Part shown: positions 32,539 through 60,612 of the stretch, piece after piece
How positions within the stretch are numbered: position 1 is the stretch's first letter
How the letters are laid out: each line of letters opens with the position of its first letter
Origin: a virus
Length of the DNA stretch: 64,000 nt
Direction: 5' to 3' (one strand)
Virus record (IMG/VR): IMGVR_UViG_3300018080_000015
Coordinates: 24,187 to 88,186 of that record
Notes under the pieces: model-generated
Seen by the model: the letters and a program-made list of their open reading frames with translations, nothing else
The model's database searches: none
Told to the model about the DNA's origin: nothing
Program-made: the position numbers and the translations under genes

Positions 32539-34703
32539 CACAGATTGAAGTTGAAGTCTGCGAAGGGATCGGTGTTGACGTTCTCAGGAGCGCTACCGCC
32601 CATGATCTTGAGGAGCTGGCGTTCGGCCGAGTTGGCGATGTCCAGCTTCTCCATCTCCCCGAGGGTAAACGGCACCGGCTTCCTGATCACGTGAAAATCG
32701 CGAGCGATGTGCGCATGAACCGCAGCCACGCAGTCTGCCACGTCCTTGGTTCCGAGTGTGCCGTCCGCACGAGTCGCAGTGCAGTTGATCTTGTCGAGCT
32801 CGGTGTCGTACTCGAGCGAGCTGCAGTCCATGAAGAAAGGCTCGTAGGCGTAGAAGCTCGTGCGCCTGTCGATCATTGACTGTCGAAGGTACTCGTACGG
32901 TGCTGTGGTGCGCTCGAGGGAGAGAAGCTCGGCCTCGATGCCCACTGCTTCGAAGGCGTCGATGGAATCGGCCGATTGGAACTGGTCGAAGGAAACCCGC
33001 TCGAAGCCAGGATACTCGCCGAAGGCGTAGCACGCCCAGATGATATCCCTCAGACGACGGGGCTCGAGCTTGCCCCCGGGCGGAGCGTAGAACCTGCACA
33101 TCACGTCGATGATGGTGATCGGGCGCTCTTCGACGAAGAAGATCCAGCCCCCTTCAACCTCTTCGTTCTCTTCCTTTACGATGCGCTGCTTGTAGCCGCC
33201 GAAGTGACCGATGGCGAAAGCAGCCCCGCACTTCGTCCGTGCAAGGTCGCCGTGGACGTAGCGGGTCCTGTGCGGGTTGACCTTGGGGTACTTGGCGAAG
33301 TTCTCCGCAGTCTTGTGGTGGTCGTAGCGGGTCGGGTCGAACAGCTCGCCCTTCGAGTTGAGGAGCTGGGTCGGGAACTTCGAGCGAAGAATCTGGGATG
33401 CAGAGATGCCTTGAGGCTCCGGGAGCTTGAACGGGTGCTCCCTGGGGATGTCTCCGCAATCCTCGAGCCCCACACAGCCCCTGTAGATCGACGTCTCCTC
33501 CATGAACGGATTGCGGGCCAGGATGGACCAGCCCGAGATGTCCTTGATGGCTTTGTGCAGGTTGTCGATGTAGAGGTCTTTGAGCTTGTGTGGAACAGCC
33601 TGGATGCGACACCCGGCCGGCATGCGATCAGCGAGCTTCTTCAGGTCTGCTTTTTCGACTTGGTCGTCGTCCCCAAGCATACGAGACGGGTTCGCAGCGT
33701 TGCCAAGGAAGATGTAGAAGCGCTTGGTCCCGTACTTGTGGTCTGGACGGGACATCTTGGGGAGCCACTGGGGGTAGTCCAAGACGGCGACGCGGGGATT
33801 GCCCTTCGAGGTTTCGATTCTGCGCTCGAGAAAGTCGCCGGGGAACTGCTTCGAGGAGATCATGTAGAGCCGGGCGAGTACGAAGTCCTCTTCAGTGACG
33901 TAGCGGGATGCTTGGCGGCCCGCGAAGGCGTCGAAAAGCACCTTGGCCTGGTCATACTCTCCGGCGAGTTTGGAGTGGCGGGATTGTGCAGCTCCGACCA
34001 TGAAGTTGAGCTCGTCGAGACAGCCCCCGATGACGTTCTCGCCCAGGATGGAGCTCTCGCGGGAGTTGCCCGCCATCCAGACGACGTTCTGCTTCGGCCA
34101 CCAAAGCATGTCCTTGCCCGTGGGCCTGAACAGCTCGTGGTTTTGGAAGAGAGGTGAGGCCATCAGCGCATCGGTGACGTAGTTCCACATGACGTCGTGG
34201 GCACTGCGGCCGTCGACGGAAAGTGTGGCGAAGACGATGCGGGAGTCTGGAGCGTTGTCGAAGATACTTTGCGGGTTCTTCCGACAGAGCGTGTGATAGA
34301 GCTCGTAGGAGATCCCCATGTGCGCAGCGTAGTTCTTTCCCCACCCAATAGCCCCCGTCAGGATGACCTGCTTGATGAAGGGATTGTTCAGGATACGACA
34401 AAGACGGTCGAGCAGCAGCGGGTGTAGGTTGCGCCCCCGGTGCCCCATGTAGTCGTTGTCGAGAAAGAACTGCCGCGGAGAGACGGGCGGGATGTAGAAG
34501 TGCTCAGAGTCGAGCGCGTTGCGCGTTGGGGTCTTGGCCGCGTTGGTCTTTCTCTGCTTGACGCGCTCTTGGAGCTCTCGGATGAGAATGCCGCGTTGGA
34601 CTGGCGAGAATCGGTTGAGGCGCTCGATGATCGGAGGAGGAGATGGGATCTGTTCCCATCCCCCGAGCCCCTCTACCAGATGCTGGCCAATGTCAGCGCC
34701 CAT
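32538..34703 (-). CDS. Terminase large subunit
   Basis: Walker A GAIGWGKN, Walker B CLDE, nuclease motifs HGDLA, FDQFQS and KDVAD. Confidence 0.92.
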   Translation of the reverse strand: MGADIGQHLVEGLGGWEQIPSPPPIIERLNRFSPVQRGILIRELQERVKQRKTNAAKTPTRNALDSEHFYIPPVSPRQFFLDNDYMGHRGRNLHPLLLDRLCRILNNPFIKQVILTGAIGWGKNYAAHMGISYELYHTLCRKNPQSIFDNAPDSRIVFATLSVDGRSAHDVMWNYVTDALMASPLFQNHELFRPTGKDMLWWPKQNVVWMAGNSRESSILGENVIGGCLDELNFMVGAAQSRHSKLAGEYDQAKVLFDAFAGRQASRYVTEEDFVLARLYMISSKQFPGDFLERRIETSKGNPRVAVLDYPQWLPKMSRPDHKYGTKRFYIFLGNAANPSRMLGDDDQVEKADLKKLADRMPAGCRIQAVPHKLKDLYIDNLHKAIKDISGWSILARNPFMEETSIYRGCVGLEDCGDIPREHPFKLPEPQGISASQILRSKFPTQLLNSKGELFDPTRYDHHKTAENFAKYPKVNPHRTRYVHGDLARTKCGAAFAIGHFGGYKQRIVKEENEEVEGGWIFFVEERPITIIDVMCRFYAPPGGKLEPRRLRDIIWACYAFGEYPGFERVSFDQFQSADSIDAFEAVGIEAELLSLERTTAPYEYLRQSMIDRRTSFYAYEPFFMDCSSLEYDTELDKINCTATRADGTLGTKDVADCVAAVHAHIARDFHVIRKPVPFTLGEMEKLDIANSAERQLLKIMGGSAPENVNTDPFADFNFNL

Positions 34704-43964: not shown

Positions 43965-44219
43965 TTATCGCGGGCCGCCCCTCATGGGGATGCCTAGTCG
44001 TGCACCTCCCGCTCCGGCGAGCCCGGCCATGTTGGTTGCTCCCTGCCGCGCCAGGTTCTGGGCTTTCGCTCGCTGCGCGACGCGACGTTCACGTCGCCGC
44101 AACTCTGCCCGAGCGACGCCAATCCTCCCGCGCCGGCCAGTAGCCGGTGCCATCCCGGCCGCCGCTCGCGCCGCCTGCCACTGCGCCCTCTGCCGCAGCA
44201 AATCTCTTCCCCTTCCCAT
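43965..44219 (-). CDS. Small Arg/Ala/Gly-rich basic protein
   Basis: Strong SD (AGGGAGGT) and followed directly by the terminator. Confidence 0.6.
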   Translation of the reverse strand: MGRGRDLLRQRAQWQAARAAAGMAPATGRRGRIGVARAELRRRERRVAQRAKAQNLARQGATNMAGLAGAGGARLGIPMRGGPR

Positions 44220-58605: not shown

Positions 58606-59559
58606 CTACCGACGGCGAGCGAGCCAGCTCGAGAACACGCTCCCGCTCTCGCGCGGGGCACTGGAGAGGAGCTCGTCGTAGGTGTACTCAGTCGCACGCT
58701 CGACCCTCCGGCGTAGGTCAGGCACGGAGTCGGGGTCTTCGTCCCCAGTGAAGTGCACGATGCGTACCCGCTTGCCGACCTCCAGGAGCGCGAGCGCGAG
58801 CTTGCGGGCCTCCTGGGTAGCATCACCGTCGTAGGCGACATACAGGAGCTCCTGTGGCGCTCCTACGAGGCGCTCGAGCTGGGGCTCGGAGAAGCTCTTG
58901 CCGAACGTGGCGACAGCCTGGGGACCGAGCGCACACGCGGCGGGGATTCCCTCAGCGATGAAGATGTAATCGTTGGCCGGAGAGAGCGCCTTGTCAGCGT
59001 TGAAGAGGAGGCTCTTGCGGCGGGTGCCGGGAGCAGACATCCAGCGCTTGGACTTCTCCGTGGCGTCCATGTAGCGGGCCTGATAGCCCTTGTAGCCACC
59101 GTCGTATAGCGGGAAGATGGCTGAACGACGGAGACGCACGTACTTCTTTGTAGTGCCTACGTCCCGCCCGGTGCCGTCCACCACAGTGAGGAAGACGGAG
59201 CCTTCGTAGTTCGAGCCGCAGACGCCGAACTCTCGGATTTGCTCTGCAGTGAACCCGCGTCGGACGAGGTATCTGAATGGGGCGCTGTTGGGCCTCAATG
59301 GGGAAGCCTCAATCTGCTCGAGCGTGGGCGGGAGCCACGAGAGCTCTTGCTTAGGCCCGACGCTCGGGATGTAGCCGATTTGCGCGAGGCGGAACACTGA
59401 GCCCTTGTACTGGCACCTCATGCAGTAGAAAGCACCAGACTGCGCGTTGACGTAGAGCTTCGGAGCCCCACACTCGCCGCAGTGAAAGAGCATCTCGCGC
59501 GGGTCGGTGTTGAGCGCCCGCCCGAAGAGCTCCACTGCGATGTCACGCGCGCGACTCAT
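58606..59559 (-). CDS. DNA primase (Zn ribbon + TOPRIM)
   Basis: CGEC...CMRC; 'YQAR'; TOPRIM 'IAEG', 'VAYDGD', 'DPD'. Confidence 0.88.
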   Translation of the reverse strand: MSRARDIAVELFGRALNTDPREMLFHCGECGAPKLYVNAQSGAFYCMRCQYKGSVFRLAQIGYIPSVGPKQELSWLPPTLEQIEASPLRPNSAPFRYLVRRGFTAEQIREFGVCGSNYEGSVFLTVVDGTGRDVGTTKKYVRLRRSAIFPLYDGGYKGYQARYMDATEKSKRWMSAPGTRRKSLLFNADKALSPANDYIFIAEGIPAACALGPQAVATFGKSFSEPQLERLVGAPQELLYVAYDGDATQEARKLALALLEVGKRVRIVHFTGDEDPDSVPDLRRRVERATEYTYDELLSSAPRESGSVFSSWLARRR

Positions 59560-59770
59560 GCTCTCCCGGTCTCGCACACACTGGACAATAGCAGCCTGGT
59601 CCCATCAGTATCGCGAAGAGCCCAATGATGTACCCCCAACCGTGATCTGCGTGGGCTTTCTCGCACGCACGCAACTCCGGCGCAGCTCCACGACCGACGT
59701 GAAGCTCAAGAGTACAACCACAGCTGTCGCACTCCAACGTGGCATGCTGCTTCTTCATCGTAACCGGCAT
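59543..59770 (-). CDS. Small Zn-ribbon protein
   Basis: CDSC...CPVC; SD. Confidence 0.5.
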   Translation of the reverse strand: MPVTMKKQHATLECDSCGCTLELHVGRGAAPELRACEKAHADHGWGYIIGLFAILMGPGCYCPVCARPGEHESRA

Positions 59771-59793: not shown

Positions 59794-60003
59794 TGCGACC
59801 GGAACTTACTCAGCTTTGCGAGCCATGCACGATCGTATTTTGGCTTTTGCGAAGCAGGGAGCAACCGAAGCTTGCGACCCTTTTTCGCCCAGCGAAAAAT
59901 AACAAAGATAGGATCGTGCAACTCCCAGGACGTTGGGTGTGTCCTGGAAGGGACGAGCAATTCACACGCACGGCGTATCGCCGCACCTAAGCTACCGGTC
60001 GCA
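59794..60003 (-). ncRNA. Candidate structured RNA immediately 3' of the tRNA-like element
   Basis: Closing stem 59794-59808 / 59988-60003 enclosing several internal stems. Confidence 0.45.
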
Positions 60004-60004
60004 A

Positions 60005-60077
60005 AGCGAGGGATGGGAATCGAACCCACAAACCGCCAGGGAGGTTGATTGAGACGGCGCACCTTTGCTTCCCTCGC
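60005..60077 (-). tRNA. tRNA-like element with non-canonical D arm and anticodon loop
   Basis: GCGAGGG/CCCTCGC acceptor stem, canonical GTGGG-TTCGATT-CCCAT T arm, 3-bp D stem, 5-bp anticodon stem with 15-nt loop. Confidence 0.65.
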
Positions 60078-60246
60078 AAGCTGGGTGGTTCCAATCGGAG
60101 TGAGGCCCACCCAATACATCCGACTCGAGCGGGAGCCGGATTGGCTCATACTACATCGTCCTGCCCTCCATCGTTTGAGCATTTTTCGTCCTAAAAACTG
60201 TCCCGGACCACCTCGGCGTGGTCTCTTCTCTCTTCTACGGGAACGC

Positions 60247-60612
60247 CTACTCTGCGGAAACCGTTTCGCGCCACTCGATCCCAAGCTCGAGCAGCGTTAC
60301 TCCGAGCATAGCCTCGATTCTACCCAGCCGCTCCTCGACGCGATCCCAGGCATCCGCCTCGTGCTCGAAGCACAATGCAGTCGCCACGGACCATCCGTCT
60401 TCGTGCATCTCCGGATCACGCTCCCGTATCAAGGAAAGGCGCTTGCGGCACGCCTCTCCACTGACAGCAATATCGCGCGAGGCCATCCACCCGGCCACCG
60501 CGCTCCACCAGTCCGCCTTCTTGCCGAAGGTCTCACGCAGATCCACGAGGCACTCCACGGCCTCCAACAGAACCTGCTCGTCCTCATCCGTCCACGAGTG
60601 TCTCGTCGCCAC
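60247..60612 (-). CDS. Myb/SANT-like (RsfA-type) DNA-binding protein
   Basis: 'SWTDEDEQVLLEAV...WSAVA....SGEACRKR'. Confidence 0.6.
   Translation of the reverse strand: MATRHSWTDEDEQVLLEAVECLVDLRETFGKKADWWSAVAGWMASRDIAVSGEACRKRLSLIRERDPEMHEDGWSVATALCFEHEADAWDRVEERLGRIEAMLGVTLLELGIEWRETVSAE

Follow-up and report, generated by a model that had tools for sequence, protein, structure and literature searches.

What is a tRNA-shaped unit that probably does not decode doing, on its own, among the replication genes of a phage? The question is raised by the IMG/VR virus record IMGVR_UViG_3300018080_000015, an 88,186-bp genome that has direct terminal repeats and is rated 100% complete. Bases 24187–88186 of this record were analyzed as one stretch of 64,000 nucleotides (nt), called the window throughout. 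The tRNA-like element is 73 nt long and runs on the minus strand from 60077 to 60005 of the window, which corresponds to 84191–84263 of the record. It combines a complete acceptor stem and T arm with an inner part that cannot be distinguished from shuffled sequence by its folding. On the basis of this anatomy and of the known specificities of the processing enzymes, our tentative first choice is that the element is a cis-acting processing signal for RNase P and RNase Z, which would work in the manner of the t-elements of plant mitochondria.

An intact top half around a featureless middle

The element had been described in an earlier note, and re-reading of the window letters showed that the 73-nt sequence and the minus-strand position given there were exact. 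The sequence of the minus strand is GCGAGGG AA GCA-AAGG-TGC G CCGTC-TCAATCAACCTCCCT-GGCGG TTT GTGGG-TTCGATT-CCCAT CCCTCGC T. In the numbering used here position p equals coordinate 60078-p, and the discriminator U73 is thus found at 60005. The 5′ strand of the acceptor stem, GCGAGGG (positions 1–7, 60071–60077), pairs with the 3′ strand CCCUCGC (positions 66–72, 60012–60006), and all seven of the seven pairs are Watson-Crick pairs. The T arm GUGGG-UUCGAUU-CCCAU (positions 49–65, 60013–60029) consists of a 5-bp stem and the loop UUCGAUU, and it includes GGTTCGATTCC. The intact acceptor stem and T arm that had been claimed are therefore present, and the T arm is backed by its sequence, by the chance test and by the exact 21-mer in tRNA-Leu genes, both described below.

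The other parts of a tRNA are lacking, again as the earlier note had stated: a 15-nt loop is found instead of a 7-nt anticodon loop, position 8 is A and not U8, and the discriminator is followed by the trailer UUG, so that no CCA is encoded. At the site of the D arm lies a small hairpin, GCA-AAGG-UGC (positions 10–19, 60059–60068), with 3 bp and the 4-nt loop AAGG, and a GG-containing loop of 7–11 nt is absent. The site of the anticodon arm is occupied by a hairpin with the 5-bp stem CCGUC/GGCGG (60033–60057). Its 15-nt loop UCAAUCAACCUCCCU (60052–60038) includes CCUCC, and the 8-mer ACCTCCCT sits inside this loop (60045–60038). This is the sole stable hairpin of the region, and a 7-nt anticodon loop with U33 and a purine at position 37 on a 5-bp stem is absent. 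Threading of the element onto the standard tRNA numbering, by reasoning on the sequence, also did not lead to a paired anticodon stem. Outside the cloverleaf, position -1 is U, as the leader ends with ...AGCUU before G1, and U74 and U75 follow the discriminator.

The minimum free energy structure of the 73 nt calculated with RNAfold is the proposed cloverleaf (-28.7 kcal/mol, z -2.28, 6 of 200 shuffles as good), and the cloverleaf was retained when the whole surrounding 476-nt intergenic gap was folded. The cloverleaf of the earlier note, with its shrunken D arm and 15-nt loop, thus stands as the minimum free energy structure, but its two inner hairpins do not stand out, because the 41 nt that form them fold like shuffles (z -0.31, 73 of 200 shuffles as good). 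The inner hairpins are possible but have no statistical weight, and only the acceptor stem and the T arm exceed chance. This was quantified by a scan of the whole genome for a T loop TTCRANY on a 5-bp T stem with an abutting 7-bp acceptor stem, which was compared with first-order shuffles. The scan yielded a single match, the element, whereas the shuffle mean was 0.08 and 13 of 200 shuffles contained at least one match. With the exact loop TTCGATT, none of the 200 shuffles gave a match.

tRNA and Rfam searches

The earlier note had proposed ARAGORN and Rfam as checks. Both were run, and the element was not called at default or gathering thresholds. ARAGORN at default settings found no tRNA and no tmRNA in the window, and the whole genome was equally negative, whether the intron option (-i) was set or not; a tmRNA was rejected on this result. 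At the very lax setting -ps70 the element was listed, among 503 mostly spurious calls. The element is the only tRNA-like unit found in the complete 88-kb genome. No Rfam family matched the window at its gathering score, and the general tRNA model RF00005 gave no match at E<=10 in the genome. The best Rfam match of the element was tRNA-Sec, which reached 22.5 bits where the gathering score is 47; E was 0.19 when 2 kb were searched and 0.045 for the 476-nt gap. The search for a known Rfam family in the gap returned nothing but this sub-threshold match and a 13-bit match to DnaX. The claim that the element is not a decoding tRNA is supported by the missing 7-nt anticodon loop, the missing U33 context, the missing U8 and the fact that no caller accepts it.

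Resemblance to cellular tRNAs

A search with the 73 nt by blastn matched only the T arms and 3′ ends of ordinary tRNAs, and the top match was an unannotated tRNA-Ser. More specific results were obtained with the 21-mer GGTTCGATTCCCATCCCTCGC, which was found exactly in five of the species genomes scanned, four times within a tRNA-Leu gene. In three of these genomes, two Christensenellaceae metagenome-assembled genomes (MAGs) and one Clostridia MAG, all 31 of the 31 acceptor-stem and T-arm bases of the element are identical to those of a tRNA-Leu(GAG) gene. These are class II tRNAs, with which the element shares both acceptor strands and the whole T arm. However, the genes are 86–87 nt long including an encoded CCA and have A73, while the element has 73 nt up to its discriminator, has U73, and lacks the long D loop, the anticodon loop, the variable arm and the CCA. 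ARAGORN calls the matching tRNA-Leu genes but not the element. When the inner part of the element was compared with the inner parts of tRNA-Leu, the z values ranged from -1.05 to 2.44, and the best was reached by 22 of 1000 shuffles, in five comparisons that were not corrected. The inner similarity appears to be at most marginal.

The fifth match of the 21-mer is a lone tRNA 3′ fragment followed by T and CCA, at 170–260 of the retrieved locus, in a Udaeobacter MAG (contig DATKEV010000082.1). No 5′ half lies nearby, and a full tRNA from which the fragment could stem was not found in that MAG. The fragment looks like the leftover of an element that integrated into a tRNA gene.

The discriminator is U73 in the element versus A in all four matching tRNA-Leu genes, and A73 is listed in Table 1 of PMC9976931 as the acceptor-branch determinant for bacterial leucine. 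The acceptor-branch set listed in the same table for bacterial glycine, U73, G1-C72, C2-G71 and G3-C70, is present in the element with all four members. For C35 and C36 of bacterial tRNA-Gly, however, the element has no 7-nt anticodon loop that could hold them, and the D arm and the anticodon arm of a tRNA-Gly are absent as well. No cellular tRNA of class I size that combines the acceptor stem of the element with U73 was found in 401 Clostridia-class genomes. A pattern search for this combination in the same genomes yielded eight matches, about as many as the reversed control, and none of them was a tRNA.

A candidate signal for RNase P and RNase Z

Among the roles suggested in the earlier note, a signal for RNase P and RNase Z fits the anatomy best. 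The element would be a tRNA-derived top half, with the acceptor stem stacked on the T arm and a non-decoding filler in between, that is embedded in the transcript of replication genes. Host RNase P would cut between U-1 and G1, and host RNase Z would cut after U73 or within 1–2 nt of it, given the missing CCA and the two uridines (U74 and U75) behind the discriminator. The two cuts would part the message of the upstream helicase and Myb-like genes from the downstream segment and uncouple both. A domain of about 210 nt would be left with a defined 5′ end 1–2 nt ahead of its closing helix, and a tRNA-shaped RNA of 73 nt would be released as a by-product. We infer that the element is transcribed and cleaved, and that cleavage influences expression of the primase region.

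The known specificities of the enzymes are in agreement with this proposal. Hairpins composed of an acceptor stem, a T stem and a T loop have been described as efficient substrates of RNase P (PMC11143913), and precursors that lack CCA are described as being cut by RNase Z directly after the discriminator (PMC8549757). A U among the first 2 nt after the discriminator has been reported to stimulate the RNase Z of Bacillus subtilis about 200-fold (PMC10100781). A perfect top half beside 41 featureless inner nt is what would be expected if only the part that is read by RNase P and RNase Z had been kept.

The location of the element also led us to consider a processing signal, because its orientation is that of the replication genes on both sides and a very stable domain follows directly. 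This domain comprises about 210 nt on the minus strand (59794–60003), folds into a multi-branch structure and is closed by a 9-bp stem, UGCGACCGG/CCGGUCGCA, which begins 2 nt past the discriminator and to which an inverted repeat (I7) corresponds. Its predicted energy of -92.1 kcal/mol (z -5.81) was not reached by any of 200 shuffles. The opposite (plus) strand folds less well (-83.0 kcal/mol, z -4.12), and the stronger fold of the sense strand mildly favors an RNA in gene sense. No Rfam family matched the domain, which may be the leader of the downstream open reading frame (ORF) and the primase gene or may be a separate RNA.

The flanks of the element (59999–60082) contain CTTGCGA on the 5′ side, which overlaps G1–A4, and CTTTGCGA on the 3′ side. 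Both flanks have perfect complements of 9 nt further downstream, at 59813–59877 (inverted repeats I8 and I9, and the imperfect I2). They represent possible alternative pairings that would open the acceptor stem, and the count of such 9-mers is near chance for the 1.2-kb region.

Several points weigh against a processing signal. The use of the rule for RNase Z of B. subtilis is an extrapolation, because a Bacillota host is only hinted at by the relatives of the primase and by SD usage. Chance alone could easily account for the U at position -1, and also for the U in the first 2 nt behind the discriminator. The perfect top half would be expected equally for a tRNA gene whose middle was recently replaced. 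Furthermore, many other gene junctions of the phage do without such an element, and why this one should need tRNA-type processing is not obvious. Lastly, the sole close relative that was fetched, a metagenome locus, ends before the syntenic spot.

Alternative explanations

The explanation that comes closest to the proposed processing signal is a captured tRNA-Leu-like gene that was recently broken, with its D, anticodon and variable arms replaced or deleted by illegitimate recombination, and that has no function and has not yet decayed. A faultless top half beside a middle without meaning is accounted for equally well in this way, and we regard the broken gene as our second choice, possible but doubtful. 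The identity of the acceptor stem and the T arm with real tRNA-Leu(GAG) genes is as expected for such a remnant, and so are inner 41 nt that fold like shuffles and have a marginal similarity to the inner parts of tRNA-Leu, the rejection by the standard callers, and the presence of a single copy without any repeat elsewhere in the genome. Such a break must have happened recently, because uniform decay cannot produce 31 flawless bases beside an unrecognizable middle. In addition, U73 instead of the A of all four tRNA-Leu genes demands at least one further change, at a key identity base. The location is a further point against a remnant: the gap around the element is long, non-coding and structured in its other parts, and the phage, with its compact genome of 88 kb, has no other tRNA. 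If the element were merely a broken tRNA it would be ordinary, and its main value would be a hint at a Clostridia-like host.

A second alternative is that the excised 73-nt RNA is itself the product and acts in trans as a CCA-tailed mimic of a tRNA, which we consider unlikely. Such an RNA could occupy a host factor that binds tRNAs (a nuclease of a defense system, a synthetase or an enzyme of tRNA modification). Alternatively, it could be a short and atypical relative of the tRNA-Leu-shaped phage RNAs without anticodon, such as RNA1 of phage T5. The full glycine acceptor-branch set listed in PMC9976931 would suit a mimic, and the large loop includes the triplets ACC, UCC and CCC. TRNA-like stable phage RNAs without an anticodon arm do exist in annotations, namely T5 RNA1, T5 RNA2 and T4 rnaC. 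However, T5 RNA1 and a candidate in phage SPP1 keep a D arm of the tRNA-Leu type with a long GG-containing loop, whereas the element has only GCA-AAGG-UGC. The known examples have 119–144 nt and occur in tRNA clusters, whereas the element is solitary among replication genes. A cellular tRNA of class I size with this acceptor stem and U73 was, as described above, not found in the 401 genomes. Neither a CCA-adding enzyme nor an RNA ligase that could serve RNA repair was found in the complete phage genome.

The third alternative concerns the 15-nt loop. The earlier note had observed that the loop holds ACCTCCCT and that the complement, AGGGAGGT, is present at Shine-Dalgarno (SD) distance before the starts at 44219, 52573, 55007 and 56544, and this observation holds. 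Of the nine copies of the 8-mer AGGGAGGT in the genome, seven are on the minus strand; of the two on the plus strand, one is the complement of the loop itself. Seven of the nine copies precede, by 4–8 nt, the start codon of an ORF with 50 aa or more, the four starts just named among them. The loop ACCUCCCU could thus pair with the AGGGAGGU-type SD motifs of phage mRNAs and modulate their translation, or with a GGAGGG 100 nt upstream in the same leader, while the tRNA frame would serve as a stabilizing scaffold. With 86 copies of CCTCC on the minus (gene-sense) strand of 88 kb, the chance that a 15-nt loop holds the motif is calculated to be about 1%. The CCUCC in the loop is noteworthy, but the observation is post hoc, and the complementarity singles out no targets, because GGAGG-type sites are generic in this genome, with 82 candidate sites that combine an SD motif and a start, and all of them would pair with the 16S rRNA as well. 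The hairpin that presents the loop is no better than chance, and no paper on a tRNA-shaped anti-SD RNA was found in a literature search. We consider an anti-SD regulator very unlikely.

Slightly less credit still is given to a functional RNA of an undescribed type that works in trans. The tRNA enzymes of the host would cut a tRNA-shaped scaffold out of the transcript and give it a CCA end, and the product would unite the glycine identity set with an anti-SD loop. This loop would show the anti-SD core of the 16S rRNA, CCUCC, extended to a perfect match with the AGGGAGGU sites favored by the phage. The RNA could bind to the ribosome-binding sites of the phage, or to a factor by which the 16S 3′ end is recognized, while it would look like a tRNA to the cell.

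The least credible readings are a phage attachment site (attP) with part of a host tRNA gene and a pure chance resemblance: such sites often copy tRNA 3′ ends, and the same 21-mer is the lone 3′ fragment with T and CCA in the Udaeobacter MAG, but neither a tyrosine integrase (PF00589) nor a resolvase-type recombinase (PF00239) was found in the complete genome, with positive controls, the 5′ acceptor strand that is also present would not be needed by an attachment core, and none of 200 shuffles gave the canonical T loop (TTCGATT) with a T stem and an abutting 7-bp acceptor stem. Since integrase, recombinase, CCA-adding enzyme, RNA ligase and any other tRNA were all not found, an attachment site or a tRNA-repair module is unlikely.

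Genomic context

The nearby genes are all encoded on the minus strand, in the same orientation as the element. Their order is a superfamily 2 (SF2) helicase of 508 aa, an ORF of 84 aa, a DnaB-like helicase of 450 aa, a Myb/SANT-like protein of 121 aa, the gap that contains the element, an ORF of 75 aa with CxxC motifs, and a primase-like protein of 323 aa. The Myb/SANT-like gene (60247–60612, minus strand) is predicted to encode a DNA-binding protein and matches PF13837 with E 8.8e-6, just under the curated cut-off. The primase-like gene (58606–59577, minus strand) has a weak Toprim match, and its relatives are annotated as primases.

The gap between the Myb-like gene and the 75-aa ORF extends from 60246 to 59771, comprises 476 nt and has no coding signature. 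Repeats of it were not found elsewhere in the genome. A 192-aa ORF crosses the element, but its GC contents at the three codon positions are.56/.57/.53 and its codon score is negative, while the three long genes have third-position values of.75 to.81. A protein gene over the element was rejected, as both this minus-strand ORF and a 235-aa ORF on the plus strand, for which the complement of the loop would be the SD motif, are without a coding signature.

The 75-aa ORF (59543–59770, minus strand) is preceded by the SD motif AGGAGAAGG and has a weak coding signal. Its GC contents at the three codon positions are.62/.54/.62 and its codon score is negative, yet its SD motif is good. To judge from these values, the non-coding region may extend to the start of the primase gene.

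The part of the gap upstream of the element, a non-coding leader of 169 nt after the stop codon of the Myb-like gene (60078–60246, minus strand), folds unremarkably (z -0.38). Within it, about 75 nt upstream of the element, the minus strand contains GGAGGG, 7 nt, and an ATG that is directly followed by TAG (60151–60169). This arrangement is a start-stop mini-ORF with a strong SD motif, and its GGAGG could also pair with the CCUCC of the loop.

Relatives and host

An exact 24-mer from the 3′ half of the element had no match in viral contigs. Scans of viral contigs that were guided by the primase, the helicase and alignments of each yielded one distant locus, without a tRNA-like unit. A metagenome scan added seven loci, and only one of these, locus L008, is close (49% identity); it stops inside the helicase gene, and the syntenic gap is missing. 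In all eight loci, neither ARAGORN nor the top-half scan found a tRNA. Closer relatives are present in the protein database (P0001 and P0005, which belong to one 26,311-bp contig, P0002, P0006 on a contig of 137,216 bp and P0007 on one of 33,554 bp). For the replication proteins, only three or four relatives were found at E<=1e-5 among 5.8 billion clustered proteins. The 4.5-kb neighborhood of the element had no match to GenBank phages by blastn, and the contigs of one DNA sequencing run, probably that of the source sample, showed no variants, joints or ends. The phage lineage is very sparsely sampled.

A tblastn search with the primase matched 43 GenBank phage records, with at most 29% identity among the matches listed. 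By the first word of the organism name these records were assigned to Enterococcus (32), Brochothrix (4), Staphylococcus (4), Bacillus (2) and Streptococcus (1). The relatives of the primase, the strong usage of GGAGG and the identity with Clostridia tRNA-Leu genes suggest a host from the Bacillota. The four genomes with a matching tRNA-Leu were also searched with a helicase profile for a sequence like that of the phage helicase, and only weak cellular matches of the DnaB/RecA type were obtained.

Comparison with known systems

Two kinds of tRNA-shaped RNAs that do not decode invite comparison. The first is a small set of phage RNAs, of which the annotated examples are only T5 RNA1 (AY543070, 30501–30644), T5 RNA2 (32959–33083) and the species 1 RNA of T4, rnaC (NC_000866, 70908–71046). 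According to annotations and folds, they resemble the element in being encoded by a phage, in having acceptor and T arms of the tRNA type without an anticodon arm, and in lacking a known function. They differ from it in several respects: they are 119–144 nt long, lie inside tRNA clusters and carry large structured inserts, whereas the element is 73 nt long, solitary and located in a replication operon, and has a 10-nt hairpin at the D-arm site. A 25-nt hairpin, which folds no better than chance, stands in the element at the site of the anticodon arm. T5 RNA1 has the tRNA-Leu-type D arm GCCGGAATTGGTAGACGG, while GCAAAGGTGC is found at that site in the element.

A similar and unannotated region was noticed in Bacillus phage SPP1 (NC_004166, locus L035, 6640–6810) between genes 10 and 11. 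It contains the tRNA-Leu-type D arm GGCGGAATAGGTAGACGC and the T-arm-like sequence GGGTTCAATTCCC about 120 nt apart, and its acceptor stem could not be placed. The element has no D arm of this kind.

Of the features of these anticodon-less tRNA-Leu-shaped phage RNAs, the element thus shares the acceptor stem and the T arm (31 of 31 bases), but not the D arm. To judge from its sequence, it is not filed among them, because the long D arm of the tRNA-Leu type is missing. If it did belong to them after all, it would add a very short and solitary case.

The second kind are the t-elements of plant mitochondria (Forner et al. 2007). By their description, these cloverleaves of about 74 nt depart from the canonical form, their GGTTCRANYCC arm is fully conserved, and their ends coincide with mRNA ends that are made by RNase P and RNase Z (PMC1920247). 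They are the closest analogue described so far and share with the element a non-canonical cloverleaf of about the same size, a T arm and an acceptor stem, and the lack of a decoding function. The GGTTCRANYCC arm has its counterpart in GGTTCGATTCC of the element. In addition, t-elements are embedded in the leaders and trailers of mRNAs, and the element lies in the sense strand of a non-coding gap between genes of the same strand. In contrast, t-elements belong to an organelle and experiments have mapped their cleavage, whereas the element is phage-borne and known from its sequence alone, and no sequence homology connects them. The likeness would be one in the way of working and not a family membership. 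A literature search found no paper on the use of t-element-like processing by phages. If the proposed processing signal is real, the element would represent a phage counterpart of the plant-mitochondrial t-elements: the phage would borrow the maturases of the host for tRNA 5′ and 3′ ends, and these would cut a transcript of replication genes and set the end of a highly folded RNA.

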